Shown in pieces: positions 6,331-55,816 of a stretch of DNA of 64,000 nt. The position numbers and the translations under genes are program-made. The stretch's first letter is position 1; each line of letters opens with the position of its first letter. Source of the DNA: Spirochaetota bacterium (GTDB taxonomy: Bacteria > Spirochaetota > GWE2-31-10 > MWDO01); NCBI GenBank assembly GCA_031549085.1, contig JAVBQL010000001.1, forward strand, positions 119,486-183,485, in the 5' to 3' direction. Below the pieces are notes generated by a model, which was given only the letters and a program-made list of their open reading frames with translations, had not been told where the DNA came from and made no database searches.

Positions 6331-6407
6331 GGGGCATACAACGTAAGATAAGTCGATTCTATTGTACAAGTAAGATAGAATCTTTGTTATCTTACGTTGT
6401 ATGCCCC
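6331..6407. repeat. Family B nested hairpin, copy B1
   Basis: Perfect 21-bp stem GGGGCATACAACGTAAGATAA/TTATCTTACGTTGTATGCCCC, internal loop GTC/TTTG, inner stem GATTCTAT/ATAGAATC. Confidence 0.85.
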
Positions 6408-6432
6408 TTATCGCCATTAAATCCTAAACAAC

Positions 6433-8118
6433 CTAATTTGTATTATATTTTATAATCTTATCAAGAGACTCCTTTGTTTTTTCATCACTTTCATCTTCAT
6501 ATGCTTTCTTAAAGGCATCCATAAGCTTCTCATTAAACTTGATCATCTCAAGATCTTCACTTGGATATCCTACCTTAAGAAATTGAACAAAATATTTTTC
6601 TGAATCTCTATGGCCAATTTTTAGAGCTGTCTCCAGCACCTCTGCATAAAATGGAGGCTTATATTTCTTTGAGACCTCTTTAAGAGAAAGCTCTAAGATC
6701 TTGTTCCATGTCTTCTCATCATCATCATAGACAAAACTGTATGCAACATTTGCATTTTTTTTGTCTGCAAAAAATTCACCCCATCTTCTATCCCACTTTT
6801 TTTCGCTATCAGGGATTCTCTTATCCCTATTATAATAGTAGCTATACATATCATAGGCCTGATAGAGAGCATTTGACAAATGGTAGTCCTGCTTAAAATT
6901 ACCGCTAAGCTCCTTGTAAATATCTTCAGGAGGCAAAATTCTTACTCCAACAAGAGCTTTATAGTGTATAAGATCACTATTATTCTTTGATATTTCATAG
7001 AGAGCTCTATCCTTTTTATCACTTTTGCTATCATAAAGAATACGAACAATGTCATAAAGATCAAGCGAATAGCTATAATCACTAAAGAACTTTTTATTGG
7101 ACATAATTTTAGTTATTAAATCAATGCCCTCATCTTCGTTGCGTGAAGCAGCAGCACTTAGAAGCACCTTAAGCTTGCTTGACTTCTTGTTTGGATCATC
7201 AAGAGCCTTGTTTATCTCCTCATAAACTTTCTTAATTATTCTTTCATCATCTGTCTCAACAAGAAATTCTGCAATATCGCCAAGGGTTGCTTTTTCCAAA
7301 GCAGCAAGAGCAATATCATTTCCTTTCTGAGATTTCATCTTGCCAAGAGCCGCAAAGGCAGCCTGTCTAATCTCTTTCTTTTTATCCTTGGCATATTGAA
7401 GAAGCAGATCTTCATACTTTGGATCCTCACCCAAGCTATATATAGCCTCCACAAGAACCAGTGGAGAGCCCTCCTCAAAGACCTTCATTGATAGGGGTAT
7501 TATATCTTTGCCCTTTAGAGAGTATAGAACCTTGAATAGTCTTGCATCTCTCTTTGTTCCGTTTATATTCAAAGCCTCCTCAATAAAAGGAATCATCTCC
7601 TTGCCAATTGCTGGGACTATTGTCTCTGCAACATAGTTTGAAATATATGAACGATTTTCAGTAATCGCCTCACAGTAGTATGGATACAATCTTGGGTCAT
7701 TATAGAGATTTCTCTTGAATAGATCCTCAATTTCGGTCTCATGAGTCTGTGTGCCCGATGTCAAAAGTTCAACAAGTCTATACAAGCTTGAGTATGGAAT
7801 CCTATTTACAGAGAGGGGTCTATCTTTGTACTCTAGCTCCTTAACCTCCTCATCAGCATCAGTTCGCCCCTGCGTGTAGATGAGAGAGTAGAGAAGCATC
7901 CCTGCCTCCATCAAGTTTTCTGGAGACTTTTTATCATCTCCCTCTGTAAGCTCTGTAAGTTTTGAGGCTAAAGAGTTAAAAACAGGTGCCTTTTCGCCAA
8001 GCTTCTTAAGCGGAGCTATATATTTAACAACCCTTGGATCTCCTTTTGAGAGAGAACTTCCAGCCACATACAATCTTTTAAGCTCTTCATTTAATTCATT
8101 TAAAATAGGTATACCCAT
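6433..8118 (-). CDS. HEAT-repeat domain protein
   Basis: Alpha-helical repeats such as VLVEAIYSLGE and IRQAAFAALGKM; lies between the SWIM and AAA genes. Confidence 0.8.
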   Translation of the reverse strand: MGIPILNELNEELKRLYVAGSSLSKGDPRVVKYIAPLKKLGEKAPVFNSLASKLTELTEGDDKKSPENLMEAGMLLYSLIYTQGRTDADEEVKELEYKDRPLSVNRIPYSSLYRLVELLTSGTQTHETEIEDLFKRNLYNDPRLYPYYCEAITENRSYISNYVAETIVPAIGKEMIPFIEEALNINGTKRDARLFKVLYSLKGKDIIPLSMKVFEEGSPLVLVEAIYSLGEDPKYEDLLLQYAKDKKKEIRQAAFAALGKMKSQKGNDIALAALEKATLGDIAEFLVETDDERIIKKVYEEINKALDDPNKKSSKLKVLLSAAASRNEDEGIDLITKIMSNKKFFSDYSYSLDLYDIVRILYDSKSDKKDRALYEISKNNSDLIHYKALVGVRILPPEDIYKELSGNFKQDYHLSNALYQAYDMYSYYYNRDKRIPDSEKKWDRRWGEFFADKKNANVAYSFVYDDDEKTWNKILELSLKEVSKKYKPPFYAEVLETALKIGHRDSEKYFVQFLKVGYPSEDLEMIKFNEKLMDAFKKAYEDESDEKTKESLDKIIKYNTN

Positions 8119-8134
8119 AATATTCTCTCCTTAA

Positions 8135-9592
8135 TTAATAGTTAAATCTTATAATTCCATCATCATTGACAAGAGCCATAGGGACAGCATAGAGTAGATC
8201 TGTCTTCATATCTTGAGTAAATCTGCAAATCATAGTCTGTCCAACAATCTGCTCTTTTGAGAGCTTTTTAATAAGAAAACCAAAGTTCTCAGGCTTCAAG
8301 ACAATCTGTGTCCCCTTCTCATCATAGATAACTAAAAAATCTTTACCTGATGCAGCTTTGCTTACAACAACAGCCGCAATTGGATTTTTGTCAGAGAGAG
8401 GATTCTTTATTTGTGCTTTGATTTTTTTGATAAGATCGGCAAAATCGGTTTTTCCAGCCTTTTTTGCTTTGGCTAAATCGCCCTTTGTTACATCTCTATG
8501 GTCAAACCTCTCCCATCTAACCCTTGGGTTTAGCTCGCCCGGGTATATAGAGAGTTCGCTTGTTGTAAGAAGTGAGAAGAAGCTATCCTCCTGCTTTATA
8601 TACTTCAAAGCATTATATGGGCGGAAATTTTTTGTAAGATAGATGTTTCCGCTCTCAAGCTCTATCCAGCAACCCTCATCAACATACTGCTTTTTTGCAC
8701 TATCATCATAGGAGTCAAAACTGACCTGAAGCAGTTCAGCATTCTCTTTAAATAGCCCCCTCTCTTTAAGTTCAGAGAGTTTCCACGCATAGCCAATCTG
8801 CTCCTCTATTGCGGAGTGGAGCATTGCATCAAGAGAGGTGGTTGTCATCTCAGGGAAAGCAAGATAATCATTTTTCTTTGCCTCAAGATATGCTTTGCTC
8901 TTTTTAAGAAGAGCATATATATAGTTTACACTATCAATTGCAGAACCATAGTGCTGCTCTTTGCTTGCCTCTGTTATTTCAGAAAAGAGCTCATAAAATG
9001 AGGCCTCAATTCCATCAATATAGTAGCTTCCAAGCCCCTTTACCTGCTCTCTATATATCTTCTCATTTTTTTTATCAAAACTATGGAGACCTGCTGATAT
9101 TATATTATGAAGAATCTTTTCGGAAAGCTCAATTCCCTCAATTTGTGCGCTGCACTTTTTTGCGGCAGCTGTTGCCTTTGCTTTTGTCATAACTGAAGAT
9201 TTTGCTTCGCTGCCTTCACTATCATCGCCGCTTTTTTCGGCCCTATCCTTTTTCTTCTCTATCTTGCCCCTTTTTGATACTATATCTTCAGGCACCTCTT
9301 TTTTCTTGAACTCCTTTTTTTGAAGTTTACAGAATAGAAGACCAACAGCATGTTTACATGGAAGCTGTCTGCTTGGACAGTTACATCTTGCAATAGGTTT
9401 TTCGTTATCGATAAAGTCGACAGAGCAGACATATGGATCTTTTCCGCTTCCTGCACAGCTTCCAAAGAGCAGTGTCTCATCATCACTTATAAAGAGCTCT
9501 TTAAAGCTTCCTTTTGCAGCGAGGCTCTTGCCGTTTGAGACTGTTGATGGATTTCCAGTAAAACTAATGATGAAATCTTCACTTATATTCAT
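8135..9592 (-). CDS. SWIM zinc-finger protein (YehQ-like)
   Basis: CNCPSRQLPCKH matches the SWIM CxC...CxH motif; preceded by GSCAGSGKDPY; first gene of the operon. Confidence 0.9.
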   Translation of the reverse strand: MNISEDFIISFTGNPSTVSNGKSLAAKGSFKELFISDDETLLFGSCAGSGKDPYVCSVDFIDNEKPIARCNCPSRQLPCKHAVGLLFCKLQKKEFKKKEVPEDIVSKRGKIEKKKDRAEKSGDDSEGSEAKSSVMTKAKATAAAKKCSAQIEGIELSEKILHNIISAGLHSFDKKNEKIYREQVKGLGSYYIDGIEASFYELFSEITEASKEQHYGSAIDSVNYIYALLKKSKAYLEAKKNDYLAFPEMTTTSLDAMLHSAIEEQIGYAWKLSELKERGLFKENAELLQVSFDSYDDSAKKQYVDEGCWIELESGNIYLTKNFRPYNALKYIKQEDSFFSLLTTSELSIYPGELNPRVRWERFDHRDVTKGDLAKAKKAGKTDFADLIKKIKAQIKNPLSDKNPIAAVVVSKAASGKDFLVIYDEKGTQIVLKPENFGFLIKKLSKEQIVGQTMICRFTQDMKTDLLYAVPMALVNDDGIIRFNY

Positions 9593-9744
9593 GAATAGAG
9601 CTCCTTAAAAAGAAGAATATTAAAGAGATATTGTACGATTTTGTCAATTATGATGTCAATTAAATTTGGAAAAAAAGCTGATATTGGGAAAATATATCTA
9701 TTTTTGGTTATTTTTAGTAACATTTTGTCATTATATATGTATAT

Positions 9745-10075
9745 GGTTTTTTGTATAGTTCTGTTATCACAAATATACTATTAATATCAAACTAGCAGTA
9801 CAATTATCTGTCTAATTTACTTGTCAGTATGAAGATATAAAATGAGTAAATGCTACTCAAAAAAAAGAGAAAGAGAGAGAATAATTTTATATAGGTTGGG
9901 GTTATACCCCACCTATATAAAATTACTTTTTTTCTTTTTTCTTTCTTTTAAGTAACATTCGCTCGTTGTATATCCACTTAATGATATGGAAACCAGAAAA
10001 TAGGTACAAATCGCTTATTAAAGACTGGATAGGATTGTTTATAGTATAAAAGCTAAATAAAACCTTTTATGGTTA
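9745..10075. repeat. Family A foldback element, copy A2 (core about 9834-9974)
   Basis: Same flanks and orientation as A1 (ATACTATTAATATCAAA...TGGATAGGATT); tip GGGG-TTATA-CCCC. Confidence 0.9.
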
Positions 10076-10178
10076 TAAATTTACTATAATAATATAAAAA
10101 ATATAAAATTAAAAAAAGCTTTACAAAAAATTTTTAATAAATTAGCCTGCTTAAACAAACAATAAAGGACAGGCAAAT

Positions 10179-11483
10179 ATGGACGACTACAAAAAGCTAA
10201 TCAAACTCTCGCTCCCAGTAATAGTTACCTACCTCTCATTTCACCTAATTGGTATAACCGATATGATTATGGTTGGCAGGCTTGGAAAAGAGGCAATCGC
10301 AAGCGTTGGACTTGCAATCACTGTTTGGATAGTTATCTTTTTTCCGCTTGAGTTCTTTTTCGAAACCGTTGTAATTCTCCTCTCCCGCGCCTTTGGAAAG
10401 GGGGATAAAAAACTATTTAAGAGCTACTACTATACAGAGATAATAATTGCATTGGTACTTGGATTTATTGCTCTCTTTTTTTACTTTCCACTAAAGATTA
10501 TTCTTGGATTTTTAACAAAAGATCCAGTGATATTAAAAATGGCAACACTATACCTCCTAACCGCAATGTTAAGATCTATTCCATTCACACTTGGACAAGT
10601 TTTTTCAAGAACCTTTATGGCCATACAGAGACCAAAATATATCACATACATATCAATCGCAACTACACTATTAAATATATTTCTAAACTATATCTTGATA
10701 TTTGGTAAACTTGGCTTTCCAAAACTTGGTGTCGTTGGTGCGGGAATTGCAAGCCTCATTGCAAGCATTTTTCAAGCAGGGATGCTATACTTATTCCTAA
10801 GAGTAAAGGTACGCCCCTTTATTAGTGATGATAAATTCACCCTCTCAAAACCGATGGTCAAAGAGATATTCAAGCTTGGAACACCATTGGCAGAGCTGAG
10901 CTTTTTAGAATCAATCTCTTGGGTAATATTTATAAGATTTATATCTCAATTGGGGGTGGCTCCATATGCCTCTCATGAGATTGCAATGAAGATCAAAGAT
11001 ATTGGTTTTCTGATGGGCTATGCTGTTGCGACAGTCTGCGGCTCCCTCGTTGGTGCATCGATGGGACAGAGTGATGAGAGCAGTGCAAGGAGGCTGACAA
11101 ACAAGTCGGTAATATTGGCAACTATATTTATGGTCGCCTTTGGTGTGCTATTTTTTATATTTCCAGATATCTTTACCTCCATGTTCACAGACGACAAAGA
11201 GGTAATTTTGATAAGCAGAAATATACTTAGAGTTATGGCTCTCTACCAAATTGCTGATGCTATATATCTTGTTTTTAGAAGCAGCCTCAATGCGATGAAG
11301 GATACAAAATTTGTTAGAAATATAAGCCTTATTGGGCTTTGGTGTCTGATGATTCCAGCAACATTTCTATTTGTGAATGTTTTTAAGATTGGTGTTATTG
11401 GTGCATGGATTGGACTAACTTTTCATGTTGCCTTTTGTGCGATCCTTTTTTGGCAAAGGTTTACAAAGAAGAGCTGGTCATAA
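10179..11483 (+). CDS. MATE family efflux transporter
   Basis: About 12 hydrophobic segments; TDMIMVGRLGKEAIASVG, FGKLGFPKLGVVGAGIAS and GVIGAWIG. Confidence 0.93.
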   Translation: MDDYKKLIKLSLPVIVTYLSFHLIGITDMIMVGRLGKEAIASVGLAITVWIVIFFPLEFFFETVVILLSRAFGKGDKKLFKSYYYTEIIIALVLGFIALFFYFPLKIILGFLTKDPVILKMATLYLLTAMLRSIPFTLGQVFSRTFMAIQRPKYITYISIATTLLNIFLNYILIFGKLGFPKLGVVGAGIASLIASIFQAGMLYLFLRVKVRPFISDDKFTLSKPMVKEIFKLGTPLAELSFLESISWVIFIRFISQLGVAPYASHEIAMKIKDIGFLMGYAVATVCGSLVGASMGQSDESSARRLTNKSVILATIFMVAFGVLFFIFPDIFTSMFTDDKEVILISRNILRVMALYQIADAIYLVFRSSLNAMKDTKFVRNISLIGLWCLMIPATFLFVNVFKIGVIGAWIGLTFHVAFCAILFWQRFTKKSWS

Positions 11484-11519
11484 TTTTTTAAGCAGCATTC
11501 ATCTATTTTACTCACAGTG

Positions 11520-11830
11520 ATATAAGGACTTGTACAGCTTTTATATTATTAATAATCCTATCCAATATAAAATGAGTTATCAAGTCTGTTCTCTAGGTTA
11601 CTGGTCAGTAGTAGCAGATATAATGAGTGAATGGTACTCAAAAAAAAGAGAAAGAAAAAAGAAAAAGTAAAAATGTATAGGGGGGATAAAATCCCACCCT
11701 ATACATTTTTATCCTCTCTCTTTCTCTTTTTTTTGAGCAGCGTTTTCTCGTTGTATATCTTCGTACTGACTAGGAAACTAGAAAGTAAAATGTACTAATA
11801 GTTTAATATTAATAGTATATTTATAACAAG
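11520..11830. repeat. Family A foldback element, copy A3 (reverse orientation; core about 11617-11759)
   Basis: Left flank AATCCTATCCAA and right flank ATATTAATAGTATAT are the reverse complements of the A1 flanks; tip GGGAT-AAA-ATCCC. Confidence 0.9.
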
Positions 11831-11884
11831 TAAGCTTTTTGTGTAGCTTCATATTAATGATAATTAAATACAAGTAATCAAAAT

Positions 11885-11921
11885 AAAAAAAGTGAGGTTA
11901 AAAAATAACCTCACTTTTTTT
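11885..11921. terminator. Intrinsic terminator, probably bidirectional, after the GatA-AspRS gene
   Basis: AAAAAAAGTGAGGTTA-AAAAA-TAACCTCACTTTTTTT, about 15 nt from the stop codon at 11936. Confidence 0.8.
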
Positions 11922-11935
11922 ACTTTTTTTTAAAT

Positions 11936-14743
11936 TTATGGAGAAACTCTACCTATATCTCTTGGGAATAGACACGCCTCTCTGACATTTGATAGTCCAA
12001 GTAGTTTCATAGTAAATCTTTCAAGTCCCATCCCCAATCCGCCATGTGGACACATTCCAAACTTGAATACACTTAGATACTCTTTAAAGCTCTCGGGATT
12101 TACTCCAAAATCAATCATATTGTTCTTTAGCATCTCATATTCATGAATTCTCTGTCCGCCTGTTGTTATCTCAAGCCCCTTATACAAAAGATCAAAAGAT
12201 CTAGTATAGCCTGGCAATCTCTCATCAGGCATTGCATACACTGGTCTCTTTTTTATAGGGTAGCCAAGGATATAGACAAAAGGAGAATCATATCTCTTCT
12301 GTATATAGTCACATACAGTTCGTTCGCCCTCAGGAGAGAGATCTCCGTCAAGATCCTTAACTCCCTCACGAGCAGCAATATCAAGCGCCTCTATAAAGTG
12401 GATCTTTGGAAATTTCTCAGGGATAACAATATCTTCACCAAATACATCTTTTATCAATGTACCATATTTTTCTTTAATATTGGTAAGAATATATTTAATT
12501 AAAGATTCTTGTATATTAACAAGTGTTAGTTCAGAATCTATGAAGCCCATCTCAAAATCGAGAGATACATACTCATTTAGATGTCTAATCGTATTGTGAA
12601 TCTCTGCCCTAAAGACCGGCCCAACCTCAAACACCCTCTCAAAACCACTTCCAACCATAGTCTGCTTATAGAACTGCGGAGATTGTGCCAAGAAAGCCGC
12701 TCTATCAAAGTATTTCAACTCAAAAACGTTACTTCCCCCCTCTGTCCCGCTTGATACAATCTTTGATGTCTTTATCTCTGTGAAGTCATTATTTCTCAAA
12801 AACTCACCGAATAGTCTAACTATTTCACTCTGTATCTTAAAGACTGTCAAAATCTTTGGCATTCTAACACTGATCATTCTATCATCTAGAAGTACTGGAA
12901 GGCTTATCTCCTCATATTTACCATTTATAGAGATTGGAAGCTCTGCATTTGAGTGTCCTAGAATCTTAATTTTTGAAGCTCTAACCTCGATGCCATTAAA
13001 TGGACTCTTTGGCTCTTTGACAACAGTGCCATGAACATCAATAACTGTCTCAAGGTGAAGCTTCTCTGAAAGATTGTTCTCAAAGACAACTTGAGTAAAA
13101 CCACCTCTGTCACGCAGAACAATGAATTCTATTCCGCCAAGCTTTTGAATTTTATGAATCCAACCCTTAACAACAACCTCTTTTCCAATATATTCTGGAA
13201 GCTTTGAAGACAACACTCTTCTGCTATCAACAATTGGAGCATTATAAGAGTCTGATATCTTTTTAATATCATCTGAACTATATTTTATTGACTCTTTTAC
13301 CTCTTCAAACTCTTTTTTTTTGATTATTACTCTCTTCTCTCTCTTTTTAAGAGCCTTTATCTTTTTTGGATCAATATTTTTATCTATTTTAACCTCTGAA
13401 AAGATCTTATCAGCAGCACCAATAACAGTTAGGTCTGAAAACTGCTTTCCAACAAGCTCTATTCCAAATGGAGTATCATCAATGGTATCCACTGGAATCG
13501 CAGCTGACGGTGAACCAATTAGGTTTGCTATCAAAGATGAAGCAACTGATGGATAATCAACATTAGAGAGATTTAGGTCATTAAAAGCAGGAAGAATAAC
13601 AAGATCATACTTCTCAAATATAGCATCAAACTTCTGCTTGATTAATGTTCTAACCTTTTGTGCCTTTTTGAAATATTTATCATAGTTGACACTGCTTAAC
13701 ATCAAGTTTCCAAGCATAATCTCTCTCTTTACATCAAAACCAAAGCCCTGATCTCTTGTATCAAAGAGCATATCATTGTATGTCACTTGGTTTGATGCTC
13801 TAAAACCATAGTTTACACCATCATACTTGCCCAAACTTGATGAACTCTCAGCAAAAGCTATTATCTTATATGTAGCAACCAACTCTGAAACAAGATCAAA
13901 ATCAACCTCATCAACAGTTATACCCATATTTTTAATAAGAGAGAGTGCTTTGTTAAATGAGTTTTTCACTTTGGCATCCAAAGGAAGACTCTTTATTGAT
14001 GCGATCTTTAATGACTTAAACTCTTTAGCAGGAGACAGCTTTAGATTATCAGCTCCATATGTAGAAGAGTCATATCTATCCTCTCCCTTTAAGATATTTA
14101 ACAACGTGGCAGCTCCTGATAGATCTGAAGAGGCAAAAGAGACTCTATCCAATGATGGAGCATTGCTTACAACACCATTGCCCGAAACCAAAGATGGTGT
14201 TGGCAAGAAAGATACTTGATTATTTGAAGTAATAAAAAATCTGTTTTTACCAGTATCAAGAGAGACACTTAACACCCCCATATCCAAAGCAACACCACTT
14301 GCTGCACCTATTGTTGAGAGCTTTGTGTTATATGGGTTTACTGATATATGTTCTGTTGAACCAAAATCAAACTCCAAAGTTGTTGACTTTCCAACAACAA
14401 TTCCGCCAGCCTCTTTTATCCTCTTTACTATAGTAGATTCAAAGATTGGCATATAGTCAGAGAGCATTTTGCTTCCGCATGTTGTTGGATAGTTCATATC
14501 ATGTATGTTGTCAGCTATGATAATAGGAAGCCCATCGATATCGCTTAATGGCTTGTTCTCTCTCCATCTCTTATCTGATAGAGCCGCTCTATTAATTAAT
14601 TCATCTTTATTGCCGAAAATCACAAAGGACTCTAAAAAGATATCAAACTCCTCGATTTGATTGAGAGTCTTTTTCATAATCTCTTCACAAGAAGTTTTTT
14701 TAGACTTTAAGTCTTCTTTCAATTGATAAAAACTCTTTTCCAT
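11936..14743 (-). CDS. aspS: Fusion of a GatA-like amidase domain (catalytically degenerate, aa ~1-450) and a short-type, probably non-discriminating aspartyl-tRNA synthetase (aa ~508-935)
   Basis: N half shows GatA signatures (AESSSSLGKYDGVNYG, GFGFDVKREIMLG, YFKKAQKVRTLI). C half shows the OB fold KGWIHKIQKLGGIEFIVLRDRGG, LAQSPQFYKQ, motif 2 FRAEIHNTIRHLNEY and motif 3 PHGGLGMGLERF. One uninterrupted ORF. Confidence 0.92.
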   Translation of the reverse strand: MEKSFYQLKEDLKSKKTSCEEIMKKTLNQIEEFDIFLESFVIFGNKDELINRAALSDKRWRENKPLSDIDGLPIIIADNIHDMNYPTTCGSKMLSDYMPIFESTIVKRIKEAGGIVVGKSTTLEFDFGSTEHISVNPYNTKLSTIGAASGVALDMGVLSVSLDTGKNRFFITSNNQVSFLPTPSLVSGNGVVSNAPSLDRVSFASSDLSGAATLLNILKGEDRYDSSTYGADNLKLSPAKEFKSLKIASIKSLPLDAKVKNSFNKALSLIKNMGITVDEVDFDLVSELVATYKIIAFAESSSSLGKYDGVNYGFRASNQVTYNDMLFDTRDQGFGFDVKREIMLGNLMLSSVNYDKYFKKAQKVRTLIKQKFDAIFEKYDLVILPAFNDLNLSNVDYPSVASSLIANLIGSPSAAIPVDTIDDTPFGIELVGKQFSDLTVIGAADKIFSEVKIDKNIDPKKIKALKKREKRVIIKKKEFEEVKESIKYSSDDIKKISDSYNAPIVDSRRVLSSKLPEYIGKEVVVKGWIHKIQKLGGIEFIVLRDRGGFTQVVFENNLSEKLHLETVIDVHGTVVKEPKSPFNGIEVRASKIKILGHSNAELPISINGKYEEISLPVLLDDRMISVRMPKILTVFKIQSEIVRLFGEFLRNNDFTEIKTSKIVSSGTEGGSNVFELKYFDRAAFLAQSPQFYKQTMVGSGFERVFEVGPVFRAEIHNTIRHLNEYVSLDFEMGFIDSELTLVNIQESLIKYILTNIKEKYGTLIKDVFGEDIVIPEKFPKIHFIEALDIAAREGVKDLDGDLSPEGERTVCDYIQKRYDSPFVYILGYPIKKRPVYAMPDERLPGYTRSFDLLYKGLEITTGGQRIHEYEMLKNNMIDFGVNPESFKEYLSVFKFGMCPHGGLGMGLERFTMKLLGLSNVREACLFPRDIGRVSP

Positions 14744-14883
14744 AAAAAACCGTCCTTTTTAAATAAAATTATTTTTTAAACTACTTTTATAAAAATACTA
14801 TTATATAAAATGTTAGTTCAATAAATCTCTCAAATAACACTTAAGGCAATTTCAAAAAAAAATCGACTCTACATAATTCCCTT

Positions 14884-14954
14884 GTAGGATAGAAGGCGAA
14901 AATCAAAGCTTTTTGTATTGCGTAGCATTAACAAAAAGCGGCATTTTTACCTAC
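14884..14954. repeat. Family B nested hairpin, copy B2 (variant)
   Basis: AAAAT-CAAAG-CTTTTTGT...ACAAAAAG-CGGC-ATTTT, closed by GTAGG/CCTAC. Confidence 0.6.
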
Positions 14955-14990
14955 TCAAACTATACCAAAAAAATCAAGTCTTTTACCTAA

Positions 14991-15100
14991 TTTTTGCATA
15001 TAGAGTATCAGTGGTATTGTCACAAAGATTTTTTCTTAATTGCTGAAAGCAATTTCAAAAAAATCGACTGACAATATTGCTGGTGCTCTATATGCAAAAA
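14991..15100. repeat. Family B nested hairpin, copy B3
   Basis: TTTTTGCATATAGAG/CTCTATATGCAAAAA outer stem, then TATTGTCA-CAAAG-ATTTTTT...AAAAAAAT-CGAC-TGACAATA. Confidence 0.8.
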
Positions 15101-15163
15101 TCGTAATATCCACAAGCAATGTTCTCTTTTTTTGATAAACAAAGCCTTTTATTCTATAATAAC

Positions 15164-15204
15164 CCCTCTTCTTGAACCCCCTTTATGTAAAGGGGACAGG
15201 GGGA
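15164..15204. repeat. Family C short hairpin (minus orientation, after folE stop)
   Basis: CCCCTTT-ATGT-AAAGGGG followed by ACAGGGGG; the core is the reverse complement of the 22760 copy. Confidence 0.7.
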
Positions 15205-15216
15205 TTAGTAATAAAA

Positions 15217-15762
15217 TTACTTCTTTGCAATAAGATTCAAAAACTCATTTCTTGTTCTGCTGTCAGATTTGAATCTCCCCTTCAGAGCACTTGTCATTGC
15301 ATAGCTATTTTGCTTTTCTACTCCCCTCATCATCATACAGAGGTGACTTGCCTCAAGGACAACTCCAACCCCAATTGGCTCTAATATCTCAACTATGGAC
15401 TCTGATATCTGTGTCGTAAGTCTCTCCTGAACCTGCAGCCTTCTTGAAAAATGTTCAACAATACGAGCAAGTTTTGACAAACCCAATATCTTCTTATTTG
15501 GTATATATCCAATGTGACACTTCCCAAAAAATGGCAGAAGATGGTGTTCGCAGAGTGAATAAAACTCTATATCTTTCACAATAACCATCTCATTATTTTC
15601 TGTCTCAAAGAGAGCCCCATTAATAACCGTTTTAAGATCGTCTCTATACCCTTTTGTCAAAAACTTGTATGCCTTCTCAACTCTACTTGGTGTTTTTAAA
15701 AGCCCCTCCCTATCAGGGTCTTCACCTATCTTAACAAGAATCTCTCTAATCAGCTTTTCCAT
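15217..15762 (-). CDS. folE: GTP cyclohydrolase I
   Basis: [46 protein letters not shown] and HLCMMMRGV. Start set at ATG 15762 (MEKLIRE). Confidence 0.97.
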
Positions 15763-16109
15763 ATATATTAAACATACTTCCTTAAAAAACATATTAAAAA
15801 ATAACTTAACAAAAATGTATACTATAATAAAAGTATACCCTCTAAAGCCATAATACTAAAACTATTTCGAGTTGTCAAAAAAATAATAGCTAAATTTAGT
15901 GGACTTTTACCTATCTTTTTTATTAAACTATATATATACACTCAAACTGAACAATAAGGGGCAAAATAGATATAAAATAATTTAACATTAATATACAATT
16001 TTATATAAACAAATAATTTGACATATTCAAATATATTTATTATCTTTTGTTTAAAGAAAGTGTTGTTTGCTAAATATATAAAGTATAAAATATGATTTTG
16101 GAGGTTTTT

Positions 16110-17234: not shown

Positions 17235-17256
17235 AAATAGATAATATAATATCAAC

Positions 17257-17293
17257 AAAAAAAGCTTCTTGAAAAGAACAAGAGGCTTTTTTT
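17257..17293. terminator. Intrinsic terminator
   Basis: AAAAAAAGCTTCTT-loop-AAGAGGCTTTTTTT downstream of the stop at 17234. Confidence 0.75.
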
Positions 17294-20948: not shown

Positions 20949-21230
20949 AATCACACACCGCCTTAAATGAACTCTCTCTATTTTTTAAATAGGTATATTC
21001 CAAATGGATATAATTATAGTATTATATCGAAATAAACTCTATAAAATATTACATGTTTTGCAGTAAAAGTTTCCTTCTTTGTCTTAAATTAAGTTATCTT
21101 TTAATAAATTTAAGACGTTACTTAATAAATAAAGTAGAAAGAGATTTTGACATATATTTTTTTTTATTATATTTTAAAATATTGGATTTCTTACAAAGTT
21201 TTTTAGTAGGGTGAGATTGTTTTTTCTAAA

Positions 21231-21257
21231 CCCCTAACCCCCTTTTCAAAAAGGGGG
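21231..21257. repeat. Family C short hairpin
   Basis: CCCCTAA leader plus CCCCCTTTTCAAAAAGGGGG, a 20-mer identical to the one at 39110. Confidence 0.8.
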
Positions 21258-22744: not shown

Positions 22745-22756
22745 AGTTTTTTTCTA

Positions 22757-22780
22757 CCCCCCCCTTTACATAAAGGGGGT
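22757..22780. repeat. Family C short hairpin after a stop codon
   Basis: CCCCCTTT-ACAT-AAAGGGGG about 15 nt after the stop at 22744. Confidence 0.7.
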
Positions 22781-32871: not shown

Positions 32872-33160
32872 CCTATCAATATTTAATTGGTTGTGCTGTT
32901 TCATCTTTAGCTTACTTATAAGTACAAGAATATATAATGAGAAAACGCTACTTAAAAGAGAAAGAGAGAGAATTAAAATATATAGCGGGGTGTTACCTTA
33001 AGCCTATATATTTTAACTTTTTTTTCTTTCTTTTTTAAGTAGCGTTTTCTCGTTATATATGTTGCTAATGACCAGTAACTCAGAAAATAAGTTTAATAAC
33101 TCATTCAAGATTGGATAGGATTAATTATATAATAGAGATGTATGAAAAAGCATTATCTGT
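32872..33160. repeat. Family A foldback element, copy A4 (core about 32929-33060)
   Basis: GAGAAAACGCTACTTAAAA.../...TTTTAAGTAGCGTTTTCTC arms; right flank TTGGATAGGATTAATT. Confidence 0.9.
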
Positions 33161-36044: not shown

Positions 36045-36430
36045 GTTGGCATACATACAGAAAATGCTTTTTCATACATCTTTATTATATCAATAATCTC
36101 ATCCAAGCTTTAATAAGTAGTTAGGTATCGTTTTTGTGTTACTTGTCATTACGTAGAGCTATAACGAGAGAACGCTACTCAAAAAAGAGAAAGAAGAGAG
36201 AATAATTTTGTATAGGTGGGGGGGGTAATCAAAAAAAGAGCCTAATTTTAAAAATATGAAAATAAAACAAAAAGGACGTGGCACGCAAAAAAAGCCTATA
36301 CAAAATTACTTTTCTTTTTTTTCTCTCTTTTTTAGGTACCATTCGCTCATTATATCTGTTCGTGCTGATAAGTAAACTAGGTATAAGGTTTTAATAGCTT
36401 GTTTAATATTAATAATACACTCATAATAAC
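36045..36430. repeat. Family A foldback element, copy A5 (reverse orientation, enlarged loop of about 78 nt)
   Basis: AACGCTACTCAAAAAAGAGAAAG...TATAGG and CCTATACAAAATTAC...GGTACCATTCGCTC arms; flanks ATCTCATCCAA and ATATTAATAA. Confidence 0.88.
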
Positions 36431-39085: not shown

Positions 39086-39100
39086 AGTTATTTTTACTAA

Positions 39101-39131
39101 TCCCCCTCTCCCCCTTTTCAAAAAGGGGGAT
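39101..39131. repeat. Family C short hairpin after the ftsK stop
   Basis: CCCCCTCT leader plus CCCCCTTTTCAAAAAGGGGG. Confidence 0.8.
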
Positions 39132-39175: not shown

Positions 39176-39272
39176 GGGAGTTGGGATAAGAGTATATAAG
39201 TCGATTTTGTTCGATTTTTGCTTCCTGCAAAAATATACAAAATCTTTGTTATATCCCCTTATCTCAACTCCC
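39176..39272. repeat. Family B nested hairpin, copy B4
   Basis: GGGAGTTGGGATAAG/CTTATCTCAACTCCC outer stem with TAAGTCGATTTT...AAAATCTTTGTTA core. Confidence 0.82.
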
Positions 39273-40424: not shown

Positions 40425-40735
40425 TGTAAAATATTAATACCAAGCCGGATGTAGAGCTTTATACTTAGTTTGCTAGTCAGCACGAAAATATACAACGAGA
40501 AAACATCACTCAAAAAAAGAGAAAGAGAGAGAATAAAAATATATATGAGCAGGAGCTTCGCTCCTCTCATATATATTTTTACTTTTTCTTTTTTCTTTCT
40601 TTTTTGAGTAGCGTTTTCTCGTTACATCTGTTACTAATGACAAGGAAGCCAGAAAGTAAGTTTAATATAGCTCATTATAACTTGGATAAGTCTATTAGAA
40701 TAATAGAGCTATTTGAAAAGCGGTGTCAGTATGAA
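40425..40735. repeat. Family A foldback element, copy A6 (core about 40487-40628)
   Basis: AACGAGAAAACATCACTCAAAAAAAGAGAAAGAGAGAGAATAAAAATATATATGAG and CTCATATATATTTTTAC...GAGTAGCGTTTTCTCGTT arms; tip GGAGC-TTC-GCTCC. Confidence 0.9.
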
Positions 40736-44540: not shown

Positions 44541-44541
44541 T

Positions 44542-45207: not shown

Positions 45208-45216
45208 AGCTATCTC

Positions 45217-45576: not shown

Positions 45577-45697
45577 ATAGCTCCAAAAATAGATTTCTTT
45601 TTAATATTTTTTTGTTAATGAAATATACAATATAATATAGTTTTTTTCAATGATTAAAAATATGATTATCCAGCTAATACAAACAATAAAAATAGTG

Positions 45698-46084: not shown

Positions 46085-46100
46085 AATTTATATAGACTCT

Positions 46101-47339: not shown

Positions 47340-47343
47340 AATC

Positions 47344-49751: not shown

Positions 49752-49946
49752 CTCCCTTATAAACCTACTTTAATATAAAAGAGAGCGGAGTGCTTTTTAA
49801 TTTTTTTAGCCACATTCTTTCGAAAATACATATCTTATTTTAAATATGTATACTTGTCTAACTTTAGATTTCCTTATCCAATTTTTGTTCTATAATCAGC
49901 TCTCTAAAAATTATAACTCACCCTCCTAAGCTTCGCAAGAAGTCTA

Positions 49947-50948
49947 CTATTTATTTCCTTTTCTATACTCTTCTACAGTGTTTTGTACTTTTATTAAAAG
50001 GTCTCTTGAATACTCTTTTTCTGTTAAAGATTTGTAGACATTATCGCAAGCATTTTGAAATACTTCCTTCTCTTTATCAGCAACAGGAAGATATTTAATT
50101 CCATATTTCTCAAGTGCCTTCTTAGAATCAACATCATCTTGTCTTACTTTTTTTGATAGGGCCTTAAATTTGCTAGCAAATTGATCTCTCATCATAGTTT
50201 GATAGTTCTTTGGCATACTTTCAAATATTTTTTTATCAACAACTATTGCTCCAATCATAAGTGTAATTGGAAAATCTGCTCCATAGGCAACTCTTGTATA
50301 CCATTGAGTTGCAATTAGAGTATAGTATGAGGAGAAAACTGTATCGATCATTCCTGTCTGCAAAGAGGTAACGATATCCGCCATCTGTAGTGGTATAGGT
50401 TTTATGCTGAACTCATCAAACATTGCTTTACTAACAACATCTCCCTCCAGTAGAAATGGCTTTGATGTCTTTAGGGTTGCAAGGGAGTTTACCTTCTTCT
50501 TTGAAAAAACATAGATTAGACCAACCTCTGTCCAAGCTAAGAGAACAAAACCATTCTCCTCTATCTTGTCTCCAACATAAGAGCCAAGCTTCTCTATTGT
50601 ATAGTCATACTCATCATATGTTCTAAATATTAGAGGAAATCCCAATACACCAAAGTCTTTATAAATCAGCTGCATTCCACCGCTGCTTAAGCCAGCACCA
50701 TTTAGCTGACCAATTTTCATCTTATTTACAACAGTGTTTTGATCTCCCATAGTGCTGGCAGGGTAGACCTTTATATCTATCTCCCCATTAGTCGCTACTT
50801 TCATCTCTTTATTAATCTCATCTAAACAGTTGATCCATGCTGACTTATCAGGTGCGTCGGTTGCAATTTTAAAAAAGTATTTCGCTTTAGATTGGGAATA
50901 GGCAAAAAAAGATAGAAACATTAACAAAATTATGAAAGCTTTTTTCAT
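49947..50948 (-). CDS. dctP: TRAP substrate-binding protein (TatP_T type)
   Basis: KIATDAPDKSAW, TNGEIDIKVYP, GDQNTVVNKMKIGQL and SLQTGMID. Confidence 0.92.
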   Translation of the reverse strand: MKKAFIILLMFLSFFAYSQSKAKYFFKIATDAPDKSAWINCLDEINKEMKVATNGEIDIKVYPASTMGDQNTVVNKMKIGQLNGAGLSSGGMQLIYKDFGVLGFPLIFRTYDEYDYTIEKLGSYVGDKIEENGFVLLAWTEVGLIYVFSKKKVNSLATLKTSKPFLLEGDVVSKAMFDEFSIKPIPLQMADIVTSLQTGMIDTVFSSYYTLIATQWYTRVAYGADFPITLMIGAIVVDKKIFESMPKNYQTMMRDQFASKFKALSKKVRQDDVDSKKALEKYGIKYLPVADKEKEVFQNACDNVYKSLTEKEYSRDLLIKVQNTVEEYRKGNK

Positions 50949-51016
50949 AAAAGGCTCCTTTAAAGTAAGTGAAAGCTATATATAAAAATCAAAGGTCAGT
51001 AAACAACTGCCTTTTA

Positions 51017-51892
51017 TTAGAAAAGACTATCCGCATTTTTAAGCAGTTTAACTGCCTCTTCTTGAGTAATCAAGTTCAACAATCTGTTCTCTGGACAAGA
51101 ATCAAGGTCATAATCCTCAATCTCTTTCAAGGTCTTTTTGAATTCCTCTTTTTCATGCTGCGGTTTTAGATAGAACATTGCATAGAACATCTTTGCCATT
51201 AGGAGTTTATCTCCATTTTTTTCAATAACATAGTTAAACTCATTTTTAGCTTTGCTTATATCTCCGCCAATATCTTTTGGAAACGCAGCATAAAATACAC
51301 CATAAAAAAGATGAGGAGCACTGTAGTAAAAATCTCCATCAACAACATAGACCCTATCAATTATCTGCTTAACGATTCCAAGGTCCATAAGACCATCTAT
51401 TGTATCAAGATTATCAAGTATCCACATAATCCAAGCATATGATGCCCAAAAAACATATGGAACCTCAACCTTATTTATGCTTTTTATAAAGGAGTTAAAG
51501 GCTCTATTTTTTTTCTCTATATCTCTTGATTTTTCATAAGCTGCAAATTGAGGATAGGTCATAAGAAGCTGTTTTCCCCAGTTTTTACACTTGTCAGAAA
51601 ATATCTTTTTTCTTACAGGATCATCAACAAAGGCACTGGAGTAGGCAGTAAAGGTCTGTATACCAATTTGAAGAAATGTTCTATTTTTTGGATCAGAAGA
51701 GATGAGACCCTCTATAAGAAGAAGGTATGCAGGAGCTCCATCATTTACAAGCTTGACATCTTTTTGAGAAAATAGAGATTTTGCAAGTCCATCAAACATA
51801 GAGCTGCATGATGTAAAAGTAAATGAGATAATCATTACTACTATAACCATTATAGTAATAACACTGCTATTTTTGTCTGCTCTGCCTTTCAT
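51017..51892 (-). CDS. TRAP transporter TatT component (lipoprotein)
   Basis: Lipobox FTSC, DVKLVNDGAP..LLLIEGL, GGDISKAK..F and NRLLN; directly upstream of dctP. Confidence 0.88.
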   Translation of the reverse strand: MKGRADKNSSVITIMVIVVMIISFTFTSCSSMFDGLAKSLFSQKDVKLVNDGAPAYLLLIEGLISSDPKNRTFLQIGIQTFTAYSSAFVDDPVRKKIFSDKCKNWGKQLLMTYPQFAAYEKSRDIEKKNRAFNSFIKSINKVEVPYVFWASYAWIMWILDNLDTIDGLMDLGIVKQIIDRVYVVDGDFYYSAPHLFYGVFYAAFPKDIGGDISKAKNEFNYVIEKNGDKLLMAKMFYAMFYLKPQHEKEEFKKTLKEIEDYDLDSCPENRLLNLITQEEAVKLLKNADSLF

Positions 51893-52113
51893 GTGTTTTG
51901 TCCTTAAAATATTTTTATGTGTAATTTAAAAAAAATAACATACTTATAAAAAAATTTTCAATTTCAACTTTAAAACTTCCAAACTTAAGTAAATATTGTT
52001 TAAAAGCTTCTCCATCATATTCAAGTCTATAATTTTTTAAAAATAGAGTCAACAATAAAAACTTAAATAAACTCAATAATTATACTTTTTTTAATTTTTT
52101 TTAATAATATTTT

Positions 52114-55100
52114 TCATTTTAGCAGATCTTTCTCAAATATAGCCCTGCCATTATTAAAATAGACTCCGCTCCTGTTTCCATATTTTTCAAGCTGTTTTGA
52201 TGCTCTTCCTCTTAAATAGAGGTATATAATCCCACCAAAATGGCTCTCAAAAGAGAACTCCTCACCAAAATAGCTCTTTAGCCACTTAATAAGTGCTACA
52301 AAATATATTTGATACTGCATAGAGTAGTCTTTCTCCACAAGTTTATAGAACTCATCTCCGCTATAGGTCTCACAAGCGTTGGATTTCCAGTCAAGAATAT
52401 AGAATTTATTTTCATAAGAAAAGATCATATCAATAGAGCCTGTCATATAACCCTTTTTATTAATATCACCAATTTTGGCTATATCAACACTATCCAAAAT
52501 TTCATCGATTACCCCCTCTTTTGAATAGGTAAACTTAAGTTCATTAATTTTTAAATTTTTGTTTATACTGCTTAAAAGAAGCCTGCTCTCCCCAAAATCC
52601 TCCCTCTCTCTAAATTCTATGGGCACATTTAGGGTATTAAATATAATCTCATTTATAGAGAGGGCCATCTTCTCTATAATCAAGCCACTCTCTTCACCTT
52701 TGGATAACTTCTCAATCTTCTCTCTCGTCATGTTGGATAGGATATTATGGTCAATTGCTCTCTCAATTTGTTCTCTAATCCTTAAAATTGACTCCTCTTT
52801 GCTGCTGTTAAGTTCATCTATTGAGCCAATTTCCCCAAATTTATTAAAATCTATCTTTTCAAAGGCTTTATGAAACATATTTCCCAAATTTGTTCCATAT
52901 GGGAGTATTCTATCATTATTCTCATCTATTTTTTTAAAATCTCTCTCTTTTAAAGGCTCCCCATCAGTAAGGCTCTTTGAGAGGCTTGTAAATGATGATG
53001 TTGAGAAGACTCTGCTCTCGATATTTATAAGTTTTTCTCTTGATATGCTCTCAAAGGTCTCTCCTCCAGTTCCATCAGTTGTGGAGCTGCTGCAATTGCT
53101 AGAGTCTCTCTCATCATAGTGGTTGTAGAGACTCTTCTCAAATCTACTGCTATGAGCTCTCGAGAGCCCATCTATATCTATATGCTCTCTTATAAGCATC
53201 AGCAGAGGCTTTGTATTTTTTTCTGGGGTAAAAAAGGGGATAAAAATTTTTAGCTTTGCTCTGGTCAATACAACATAGAAGAGGCGCTTCTCCTCGTCCT
53301 CCTCCCTCTCTCTATGCAGCCTCTTGTGCTGCTCCCTCTTTGTAAGGTCAAATACATTTTTTGTATCATCTTTTTTGTCATAAAAGTTATAAAATTTATC
53401 TTTGCTGCCCCTTGAGAAGCCTCCAGCAACATAGACAATTGGGAATTCAAGCCCCTTGCTGCTGTGCATTGTCATTATCTTTACCTTTTTTTTATCACTC
53501 TCAAGACGCTGGAGATCTATCTCCTTTGTAAAGTCAGACTCCCTTATGTATCTCTCCAAAAGCTCAACAATACCTATAATGTTCAATCTCTTTTTAGTCG
53601 CCTCCTTCAAGAGGTTTCCAAATATATGCTCATAATTTGTTATCTTTCTATCATAATCATTGTTGATAGAGCTGCCCTCTTTGTCAATGGTCTCATTAAA
53701 GATAAGATATGAATTTACAATGATAGAGTGAAAAAGCTCCGAAAATTTATATGTGCCTGCAAGGTAGAGCCACTCTTGAAAGAGGCGATATATCTTGCTC
53801 TCCTCACTTGTAACATCAACTTTTGAGAGTTTTTCTATATCAAAGCCAATAAATCTTGTTAATAGCAGAGCTAAAAAATTGCCATTATCTTCAGGGTAGG
53901 CAATTGCTTTCAAAAGGTAATATATATTATATGCCTCTTTTGTCTCATAGAGACCATCTTTATTGTAGAATGAGTATGGAATTCCACTCCTTTTAAATAG
54001 ATTCTCTATAGGTATTGCATCACTTCTGCTTCTAACCAGCACACATATATCATCATACTCAATTTTTCGGCTTTGCTCCTCTTTTTTGTCTGTAGTTACT
54101 CTATATTTACTATTAGGAGATGTTATCTCACTTACTGATTTTGATATAAAATTTGCATATCTATTTTTTGAGTTTGTGGCATTAATTTTTGCGTCTCTAT
54201 GGTTAAGATCAACAAAGGTCACTGGAGCAACCTCACTATAACTATCCTCACTAGACTCAATTTTAATAGAGAGGCTGTTATCTGCTGGGGAGTCAACAAA
54301 CTCCTCTCTATTGAAGTAGCTCTTGCTATTTAGGACAATATTGGCCGCATCTATAAACTCTTTTGATGAGCGATGGTTTGTTTTTAGGGAGTCAGTAGTG
54401 CTCCCTCTCTCCTTAAGGATTGCCACCGCACTCTCATAGACCCTAACATTGGCTTTTCTAAAGCCATATATGGCCTGCTTTGGATCACCAATCACTATTA
54501 TATTATGCTCTTTAGAGTCAACAAATATCCTCTTTAATATACTCCATTGGGTAGAGTCTGTATCCTGAAACTCATCTACAATCAGATAGCTATAATTTGA
54601 ACGAAGCTCATTTAGAAGGATTTCACTACTATCCACAGAGTCATCAACTATGGTAAGCAGATCATTAAAACTCACCAAGTGCTTCTCTCTCTTATATCGC
54701 TCCATCTCTATGATAAGCTCGTCAACAACAATTGGAAAGATAAGTGTCTCAAGATGAGCAATATTAACAAATATTCTCTCAAGTCGCTCTGTACACTCCC
54801 TTATCTCATCATCAATTTTTGCCAAGTTTTTATATTTAGGATAGGTCGCAGCCTCTAACCAATCTTCAAATTTATCTTTATTAGTCCTTATATTTTCTAT
54901 TTCAGAGCTAGACTCTATATCTGCAGAGAGAATTTCATTAATTTTATCCAACAGCTTTATTATCTCTCCAATATCTCTTTTCCCAAGCTCTATAGATAGA
55001 TTAACAACAGTTTTTGTCCCATTTAAATTCTCTTTTAGATATTGATAGTCATTGGTAACCTCTCTCTCCATCTTTTCAACAAGCTCTATATACTCCCAAC

Positions 55101-55683
55101 TCTCTTTTGCACCACTCTTTGGCAAGATGATATCCCCATTTCGCTTATCATAGATCTTAATAAGCTGATAGATGGTGGATTCCCAAATATTTTCACCTGT
55201 AAGAAAATCACTTTTGCTTGAAAAATCAGAGTAGATAAGAAGCTTTTTTATCAACTTTTCACTATATCTTTTATATATTTCACTGTTCAAAACTCTATAT
55301 AGGCACTTTTTATATAACTTTGAGTCATCTATAACATCATATTGAAAATCGCTCTTTGTCTCTATTGGATACTTGTCTATCACAAGCTTGCAGAAGGAGT
55401 GTATTGTGAATATAGAATTGTTATCAAAATTCTCATAGGCATCTTTAAACCTATTTATAGTAGTCCTATCATCCTCTTCACTGTTATCTATGATATCTTT
55501 TAGCCTTCCCCTCACCCTCTCCTTAAGCTCATTTGTTGCAGCCTCTGTAAAAGTTAGAACCAAGATTTTTGATAGATCTGTCTCCCCATTTTTCAAAATC
55601 TCAACAATTTTATTGATAATTGTATATGTCTTGCCAGTCCCTGCACTGGCCTCTATTATTAGATTATAGTTATTTTTGTCCAT
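52114..55683 (-). CDS. recB: RecB-like helicase/nuclease (exodeoxyribonuclease V beta)
   Basis: EASAGTGKT, LTFTEAA, IFTIHSFC, VDEFQDTD, IGDPKQAIYGFR, MTMHSSKGLEF and nuclease GSIDMIF...ILDWKSN. GTG 55698 is an alternative start. Confidence 0.92.
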   Translation of the reverse strand: MDKNNYNLIIEASAGTGKTYTIINKIVEILKNGETDLSKILVLTFTEAATNELKERVRGRLKDIIDNSEEDDRTTINRFKDAYENFDNNSIFTIHSFCKLVIDKYPIETKSDFQYDVIDDSKLYKKCLYRVLNSEIYKRYSEKLIKKLLIYSDFSSKSDFLTGENIWESTIYQLIKIYDKRNGDIILPKSGAKESWEYIELVEKMEREVTNDYQYLKENLNGTKTVVNLSIELGKRDIGEIIKLLDKINEILSADIESSSEIENIRTNKDKFEDWLEAATYPKYKNLAKIDDEIRECTERLERIFVNIAHLETLIFPIVVDELIIEMERYKREKHLVSFNDLLTIVDDSVDSSEILLNELRSNYSYLIVDEFQDTDSTQWSILKRIFVDSKEHNIIVIGDPKQAIYGFRKANVRVYESAVAILKERGSTTDSLKTNHRSSKEFIDAANIVLNSKSYFNREEFVDSPADNSLSIKIESSEDSYSEVAPVTFVDLNHRDAKINATNSKNRYANFISKSVSEITSPNSKYRVTTDKKEEQSRKIEYDDICVLVRSRSDAIPIENLFKRSGIPYSFYNKDGLYETKEAYNIYYLLKAIAYPEDNGNFLALLLTRFIGFDIEKLSKVDVTSEESKIYRLFQEWLYLAGTYKFSELFHSIIVNSYLIFNETIDKEGSSINNDYDRKITNYEHIFGNLLKEATKKRLNIIGIVELLERYIRESDFTKEIDLQRLESDKKKVKIMTMHSSKGLEFPIVYVAGGFSRGSKDKFYNFYDKKDDTKNVFDLTKREQHKRLHREREEDEEKRLFYVVLTRAKLKIFIPFFTPEKNTKPLLMLIREHIDIDGLSRAHSSRFEKSLYNHYDERDSSNCSSSTTDGTGGETFESISREKLINIESRVFSTSSFTSLSKSLTDGEPLKERDFKKIDENNDRILPYGTNLGNMFHKAFEKIDFNKFGEIGSIDELNSSKEESILRIREQIERAIDHNILSNMTREKIEKLSKGEESGLIIEKMALSINEIIFNTLNVPIEFREREDFGESRLLLSSINKNLKINELKFTYSKEGVIDEILDSVDIAKIGDINKKGYMTGSIDMIFSYENKFYILDWKSNACETYSGDEFYKLVEKDYSMQYQIYFVALIKWLKSYFGEEFSFESHFGGIIYLYLRGRASKQLEKYGNRSGVYFNNGRAIFEKDLLK

Positions 55684-55720
55684 TAATACTCTTCTCACTC
55701 TAAATACTTTAACAATTTAA

Positions 55721-55816
55721 GAGGTTTGTCAAGATAGCAAAAACAAAGTTTTTTGTATTAAACCGCTTGGCACTTTTCCAACAAAAAACGACTTTTTTAA
55801 TGTCTTGGCAAATCTC
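55721..55816. repeat. Family B nested hairpin, copy B5
   Basis: GAGGTTTGTCAAGATA/TGTCTTGGCAAATCTC outer stem (three G.T pairs); ACAAAG-TTTTTTGT...ACAAAAAA-CGACT core. Confidence 0.8.

Follow-up and report, generated by a model that had tools for sequence, protein, structure and literature searches.

Family B hairpins of a Spirochaetota genome: probably an unusual variant of REP/MITE-type repeats with a conserved asymmetric tip and copy-specific arms

Proteobacterial repetitive extragenic palindromic (REP) sequences, with bacterial interspersed mosaic elements (BIMEs) and REPINs, bacterial miniature inverted-repeat transposable elements (MITEs; Correia/CREE of Neisseria, RUP, ERIC and Nezha) and the attC sites of integrons are the described systems closest to the hairpins considered here. 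Conservation in REP extends to the stems and to a GTAG-type tetranucleotide that flanks them. In MITEs it is the terminal inverted repeats that are conserved while the centre varies, and target-site duplications are present. Template switching is a process and not an element; published work shows that it can give rise to hairpin arms, make them perfect and extend them (PMC8794818, PMC3820800, PMC13100816). The hairpins in question, referred to as family B, were first noticed in a window of 64,000 nucleotides (nt), i.e. the whole stretch of DNA that was analysed, which is contig C30:119486-183485 of a metagenome bin from an uncultured Spirochaetota bacterium (2.68 Mb, 33 contigs, 32% GC, 88% complete). 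Family B is probably an unusual, undescribed variant of selfish REP/MITE-type repeats; it is not a proven recombinase or RNA-protein site.

Like REP, BIMEs and REPINs, family B consists of about 100 lineage-specific, non-coding hairpin copies in intergenic positions at gene ends. Like BIMEs it forms a mosaic with a second unit, and like REP it is presumably recognised as a folded single strand. It departs from REP in conserving an internal loop and tip while its arms of 20-40 base pairs (bp) are copy-specific, and from the REP/REPIN-RAYT system in that no RAYT gene was found in the assembly and inverted REPIN doublets are absent. The length of about 100-150 nt, the inverted ends that form a hairpin, the nesting, the swelling of intergenic junctions by insertion and the presence or absence of copies at orthologous sites recall MITEs. 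A conserved asymmetric tip on free arms is nevertheless the reverse of the classical MITE and REP layout, target-site duplications are missing, and no parent insertion sequence was found. Integron attC sites share with family B a two-stem hairpin with an unpaired central spacer, a variable terminal structure, a free stem sequence, single-strand specificity and a position at gene 3' ends. Family B, however, has far longer outer stems, no RYYYAAC/GTTRRRY boxes at the arm ends of a 55-copy alignment, no integron integrase and no cassette arrays, and its copies are dispersed among housekeeping genes. The ends of IS200/IS605 and palindrome-associated transposable elements (PATE) differ in that neither TnpA (Y1) nor TnpB was found in the assembly. 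Template-switch (quasipalindrome) mutation (PMC8794818, PMC3820800, PMC13100816) accounts for compensated changes of several bases in one step, for loops corrected from either arm and for arms that grow outwards, but by itself leaves the conserved asymmetric loop and the spread to new loci unexplained.

The initial annotation had described five hairpins in the window, B1 to B5, with unrelated stems around a shared internal loop, together with one half-site; all six are present where they had been placed. Family B is far larger than this. A strict scan of the whole genome (CAAAG..CGAC with an inner stem of at least 5/6 pairs and an outer stem of at least 10/12 pairs) gave 43 copies, whereas 239 permuted word pairs averaged 0.05 and never exceeded 1, and 57 copies were found when one motif mismatch was allowed. 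Covariance model R1, built from an alignment (A1) of 55 copies, gave 98 matches at 96 distinct loci in 2.68 Mb, a lower bound because 150 of about 8000 candidates were scored.

Read along the CAAAG strand, a copy consists of the outer stem, CAAAG, an A/T inner stem of 6-8 bp, an apical loop or mini-hairpin, the inner stem back, CGAC and the outer stem back. The loop is asymmetric, with the 5 nt of CAAAG opposite the 4 nt of CGAC; the final T of the CGACT first proposed is paired with the A before CAAAG and does not belong to it. The median outer stem is 25 bp long, with extremes of 12 and 42 bp. What is conserved is the tip alone, namely 8-20 bp of proximal stem, the CAAAG/CGAC loop, the A/T inner stem and the apical mini-hairpin. 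The conserved words are thus internal; the flanks at the hairpin foot are not conserved and carry no GTAG-like tetranucleotide. There are two core classes, a short one (e.g. ATTTTATCTCGTTATTACGCCAATAAAAT, identical in seven copies) and a long two-stem one (ATTTTGT-AT-ATTTTTGC-loop-GCAAAAAT-CGA-ACAAAAT and relatives), and cores of 29-40 nt are identical between loci. The apical loop is GAA or GAAA in 23 of 96 copies. The description of the stems as unrelated applies to the distal arms, while the proximal 8-21 bp are common within subfamilies.

The arms and the cores vary independently. Among 24 pairs of copies whose cores are at least 95% identical, the arms are 73% identical at positions 1-8 and 37% at positions 9-20, with 28% for random sequence; distal-arm identity is 0.29-0.41 vs 0.28. 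One 29-nt core is identical in seven copies that have unrelated arms; conversely, two core types are found on the arm type AGAGTAT..TG../..TATTGCAGATACTCT. The copy C20-144027 is a chimera, whose left arm and core are those of a copy like C20+171639 and whose right arm comes from a different copy, the junction falling precisely at CGAC. In 12 cases, where about 0.8 are expected, a solo left half (CAAAGNTTTT) is situated upstream of a hairpin of the same orientation at a distance of no more than 250 nt; in nine of these the distance is 19-31 nt. Several short-core hairpins are nested in the tip of a long-core element, giving a two-tier fold.

The two arms of a copy also correct each other. Five copies have lost the asymmetry of the loop, one side of it having been mirrored onto the other (GTCG/CGAC, CAAAG/CTTTG, CGAAG/CTTCG, AACAAG/CTTGTT and ATAAG/CTTAT), and since one of these bears the core found in seven copies, that event must be recent. 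Two neighbouring copies, separated by about 3 kb, are distinguished by a block of 4 nt with compensating changes, and in related pairs the similarity ends at an equal distance on both arms (e.g. 21/21, 20/20 and 18/18). Reassortment, chimera, nesting, mirrored loops and the compensated block are signatures of intrastrand and inter-element template switching. No source of the arms was found elsewhere in the genome, where only self and partner matches occurred and the arm ends were copy-specific and unique. Target-site duplications were likewise absent; the longest direct k-mer shared by the flanks averaged 3.89, vs 3.96 +/- 0.13 for shuffled partners.

These observations bear on how covariation in the stems is to be read. 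In A1, 95.9% of cells pair, vs 63% after shuffling and 37-52% with slid partners, a rate partly built in by the choice of copies for pairing, whereas the diversity of the stems is not; two-sided changes occur at all 16 outer pairs and at 4/6 inner pairs. The covariation that the initial annotation had made a test of its proposal is present, but mirror copying at the DNA level together with core swapping explains much of it better than selection on pairing does. Perfect copy-specific stems of this kind mimic textbook covariation, which calls for caution in RNA-motif discovery pipelines.

Comparison with relatives shows that copies come and go. The junction between geneX and the Band_7 gene measures 15 nt, operon-like, in relative L024 and 514 nt here, where it holds two hairpins, a GC-rich unit and a third small repeat; identity between L024 and this genome is 88% for Band_7 and 79% for the upstream gene. 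Between DUF212 and 4HBT genes, relative L009 (about 79% protein identity at the orthologous locus) carries a hairpin and a GC-rich unit; the hairpin is missing from L018, whose spacer is 79 nt, and in this genome an additional ORF (open reading frame) is present. Copies have thus appeared or disappeared over the times in which species diverge, and the repeats remodel gene junctions. L009 was the one true member found with a 23-base pattern in JGI metagenomes. The same pattern gave six chance matches in 185,579 species genomes, all of them without arms, and R1 gave no match in 40 genomes of the same family, order and phylum (none of the same genus). Rfam 15, in both search modes, gave nothing at the gathering threshold and only weak plant-miRNA long-hairpin models at E<=1; BLAST against phages and plasmids gave nothing. 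The same strain is present in samples SRR23967707 and SRR23967709. Two further contigs touch these repeats. L025 (Logan SRR23967707 contig) joins C20:143406-143984 (98.6% identity) to C24:36794-35613 (100%) via a shared 36-nt hairpin segment; it is likely an assembly chimera at the repeat, the alternative being a real recombinant, and is not taken as evidence of recombination. L026 ends within both hairpins that flank the Band_7 gene.

On balance, the evidence leans towards family B being a lineage-specific, non-coding mosaic repeat of REP/BIME/MITE type, whose variable arms are made and kept perfect by template switching and whose tips spread. Copies are gained and lost between close relatives, tips and arms reassort, and asymmetric parts are overwritten by the mirror image of the other arm. 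The heritable unit would be about 45-90 nt long, comprising the proximal stem of 8-20 bp, the loop, the A/T inner stem of 6-8 bp and the apical mini-hairpin, and would form a mosaic with a GC-rich, terminator-like unit right behind stop codons. The long copy-specific arms would be plain DNA palindromes, with intrastrand template switching at replication or repair both lengthening them and keeping them perfect. Tips would spread between hairpins and into the tips of older ones, with the conserved loop as anchor if the mechanism is inter-element template switching, or else through an enzyme that is not in the assembly. Because the asymmetric loop persists against correction and strand-biased wobble pairs lie beside it, the sequences argue for recognition of the folded CAAAG strand by some factor. 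A benefit for the cell, e.g. as an insulator or RNA-end barrier between genes, would be secondary.

Several points weigh against this reading. No template-switch event has been caught directly, and the arrival of the first copy at a new intergenic site is not explained by template switching alone. Survival of the loop in most copies (the 57 within one mismatch) despite correction must require selection or an enzyme. That tips always lie in hairpins could also reflect insertion into palindromes that were already there; outside family B palindromes are numerous (323 stems of at least 11 bp with loops of up to 12 nt). Wobble counts are inflated by common ancestry within subfamilies, and the assembly is an incomplete metagenome bin.

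All 57 scanned copies are intergenic, and for 43 of them the downstream gene in the CAAAG direction is convergent, i.e. the hairpin faces the 3' end of a gene. Between hairpin and gene sits a second repeat, CCCCCTTTTTGAAAAGGGGGCAGGGGGATTAGAAAAA, the GC-rich unit, with the pattern CCCCCTTT..AAAGGGGG-N-GGGGGATTAGAAAAA and about 83 copies genome-wide. Of these, 49/83 (59%) lie downstream of a hairpin on the same strand at 35-207 nt, 44/50 distances falling within 35-115 nt; the sole other arrangement is a mirrored one, with four cases. The TTAGAAAAA end of the unit is 9-15 nt from the stop codon. On the sense strand of the gene the unit is terminator-like, as behind the ftsK stop at B4, so that the hairpin lies past the terminator-like unit and in the weaker orientation relative to the mRNA. 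Neighbouring genes are housekeeping ones (FtsK, RecB-like, RecC-like, GTP cyclohydrolase I). The copies and units of the window are as follows.

6331-6407 (-): B1 hairpin; 21-bp perfect arm, CAAAG, ATTCTAT inner stem, loop, CGAC, arm.
6169-6215 (-): variant GC-rich unit CTCCCTCTTCCTTTGAAGGAAGAGGG TAGGGGTGATGGTAGAA downstream of B1, adjoining the ribosome-binding site and start of ORF 5045-6142(-).
14846-14868 (+): right half-site GCAATTTCAAAAAAAAATCGACT on its own, left over from a copy of the long-core class.
14884-14954 (+): B2 hairpin, degenerate; CAAAG ... CGGC with an eroded outer stem, like C17:6205-6284.
14990-15101 (+): B3 hairpin; 33-bp arms, five G.T/T.G wobbles on the + strand, 65.4 bits.
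15177-15209 (+): GC-rich unit CCCCCTTTATGTAAAGGGGACAGGGGGATTAGT, 76 nt downstream of B3.
39176-39272 (-): B4 hairpin; 24-bp arms, long core, 74.8 bits.
39096-39129 (-): GC-rich unit paired with B4; on the + strand a terminator-like hairpin and T tract, about 10 nt past the ftsK stop (39085).
55720-55817 (+): B5 hairpin; 37.5 bits.
55853-55884 (+): GC-rich unit paired with B5, adjoining the RecC-like stop codon.
60531-60625 (-): sixth, degenerate family B copy, new with respect to the initial annotation; GGCAAAG ... GATCAAC, 21-bp outer arms, 43.6 bits.

B1, which R1 matches at C30:125821-125887 with 64.5 bits, is 26 nt beyond the stop of the HEAT-repeat ORF 6433-8118(-). B2 had been listed as a copy with a variant loop; the loop does differ (CGGC), but the hairpin is not an intact copy, as it is degenerate, has a broken outer stem and falls below the threshold of the covariance model. 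B3 has a core of the long class with the apical sequence AATTGC-TGAA-AGCAATT, and the TTAG end of its GC-rich unit adjoins the stop of GTP cyclohydrolase I (ORF 15217-15792(-)). B4 is flanked on both sides by the terminator-like sites of the convergent ftsK and VIT-family genes. B5 is antisense to the RecC-like (55892-59458 -) and RecB-like (52114-55698 -) genes, inside their 193-nt spacer. The two ORFs of 1188 aa and 1194 aa in 52114-59458(-) are RecC-like (PF04257) and RecB/UvrD-like, and their reading as rpoB/rpoC was rejected; the closest homologue of the RecC-like protein among 5.8 billion proteins is merely 45% identical. Further GC-rich units of the window are at 21225-21257(-) and 22753-22779(-).

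The alternative that survives best, and which is still considered rather unlikely, is that the hairpins are structured RNAs made from the CAAAG strand, either cis-antisense or stand-alone small RNAs or processing and stability elements of RNase III type, in which the asymmetric loop would bind a protein or direct cleavage. A stem of 25 bp is of a size suited to RNase III. The distribution of wobble pairs speaks for such RNAs. G.T pairs on the CAAAG strand had been noted early, and B3 indeed has five while B4 is mixed. Counted over the outer stems, G.T/T.G wobbles of the CAAAG strand (GU below) number 99 and A.C/C.A pairs, which would be wobbles on the other strand (AC below), number 28, both counts being inflated by shared ancestry within subfamilies.

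1-6 bp from the loop: GU 14, AC 2.
7-12 bp from the loop: GU 54, AC 5.
13-18 bp from the loop: GU 13, AC 4.
Beyond 18 bp from the loop: GU 18, AC 17.

Within 12 bp of the loop the ratio is 68:7 in favour of the CAAAG strand; the bias is seen in 37 copies and its reverse in only four. The CAAAG strand is the more stable one in 61/96 copies and folds better by 2.3 kcal/mol on average. The first inner pair covaries (A-U, U-A, C-G and G-C), the apical loops are often GAA, GAAA or GNRA, and the orientation is fixed relative to gene ends, all of which would suit an RNA. The distal arms, however, have no strand bias. Confinement of the wobble bias to the neighbourhood of the loop indicates that the element's own part is strand-specific and that the distal arms are symmetric DNA palindromes. 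The location is also awkward for an RNA, since the hairpin stands past the terminator-like unit of the adjacent gene in the weaker orientation, and B4 stands between two convergent terminator-like sites. A promoter scan gave nothing conserved in the element, and no T tract follows the hairpins on either strand (3.8 and 3.4 T per 10 nt vs a background of 3.4). Identical cores on unrelated arms, chimeras, nesting and gain or loss are repeat-like rather than gene-like, and no Rfam family matches.

It is regarded as unlikely that a dedicated single-stranded DNA enzyme, HUH/RAYT-like or a tyrosine recombinase of attC type, acts on the folded CAAAG strand, cutting at the loop and moving tips between hairpins. 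A site recognised by structure plus motif had been proposed from the outset. Three results fit such a site, namely the conserved asymmetric loop, the covarying first inner pair and the wobble bias, but no partner enzyme was found in the assembly. Recognition by structure and a short motif with a free stem sequence, strand asymmetry, the lack of target duplications, tips that sit in the tips of older hairpins, the reassortment of tips and arms and the one chimera joined exactly at CGAC all agree with an enzyme of this kind. The gene content of the assembly does not. RAYT/Y1 HUH (PF01797) gave no match, with a control positive in 6/14 genomes, a negative that applies to the assembly and does not extend to the missing 12%; Y2 HUH gave no match either, but here the control was silent and the result is uninformative. 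The neighbouring HUH gene that had been suggested was not found. IS110, reverse transcriptase, TnpB and DDE_Tnp_1 were without a match in the assembly, which has one rve gene. Tyrosine recombinases, also suggested, do occur, but the four present are all single-copy and none is an integron integrase (TIGR02249; best match 70 bits vs a cut-off of 265 bits). The 25 largest multi-copy protein families included no evident transposase-like one; one of them, with proteins of about 550 aa, has no annotation. Transposition of lagging-strand single-stranded DNA predicts an orientation that follows GC skew. The expected bias with respect to replication is not seen (40:56 against GC skew, and mixed within C30), so a replication-strand rule for orientation was rejected; the skew here mostly follows the coding strand. 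The lack of cassette arrays counts against this enzyme as well.

A doubtful variant of the preceding proposal, and one held with still less conviction, is that the tip acts as a mobile cassette addressed by structure. The cassette, about 50 nt long with the CAAAG/CGAC loop as its boundary, would fold as a single strand, and an enzyme of an unrecognised family would excise or copy it in that state and insert it in the tip of a further DNA hairpin; arm growth would be a consequence. If true, this would be an attC-like or HUH-like single-strand recombination system without an integron or a known transposase.

Ordinary intrinsic terminators, or chance palindromes of an AT-rich genome with short words in common, are very improbable: the genome does have hundreds of long palindromes and the copies do lie at gene ends, but this explanation is refuted by the permuted-word control and the identical 29-40 nt cores shared between loci, and under a test of GC-rich stem plus T tract the hairpins fail, while the neighbouring GC-rich unit fits in some copies.

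Family B, read as a REP/BIME/MITE-like mosaic repeat maintained by template switching, offers a compact system in which template-switch mutation in bacteria can be studied. If an enzyme does recognise the loop, it would represent a new structure-specific DNA or RNA activity.

Other repeats and gene families of the genome deserve brief mention. The unannotated family of about 550 aa is the sole sizeable paralogous family, with up to 9 paralogues at >=60% identity (C7:47123-47860, C9:123990-127537, C29:2929-4581 and C30:35730-37235, among others). Seventeen contigs (653 kb, 24% of the bin; including C13, C28, C33, C12 and C1) carry 0/96 hairpins, 3/83 GC-rich units and 3/39 copies of the third repeat, and may be mis-binned or separate replicons.

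Zero-loop palindromes with arms of at least 11 bp number 20, vs 2 in a shuffled genome. The interpretation of these 20 as empty or excision sites is unsupported, as they are upstream of genes or terminator-like and none lies beside a GC-rich unit. Eight zero-loop palindromes are perfect with arms of 16-21 bp, where none is expected; all eight are intergenic, and several are just upstream of ORF starts and operator-like. The eight include C20:16602-16643, C2:14119-14158 and C15:125714-125751. No tie between the eight and family B was found.

The third small repeat, with the marker CCACGTC[AC]TTTTT, has 39 copies (e.g. window about 36281(-) and C24:37030-37100). At several loci it is inserted inside the GC-rich unit, between the C-run hairpin and the GGGGGATTAG tail. 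Family-A foldbacks (AAAGAGAAAGAGAGAGAATAA...TATAGGGGGG and mirror) are a separate, purine-rich hairpin repeat, found in the window at the following positions.

1219-1306: family-A foldback.
9859-9948: family-A foldback.
11645-11734: family-A foldback.
32912-33078: family-A foldback.
36190-36321: family-A foldback.
40512-40603: family-A foldback.

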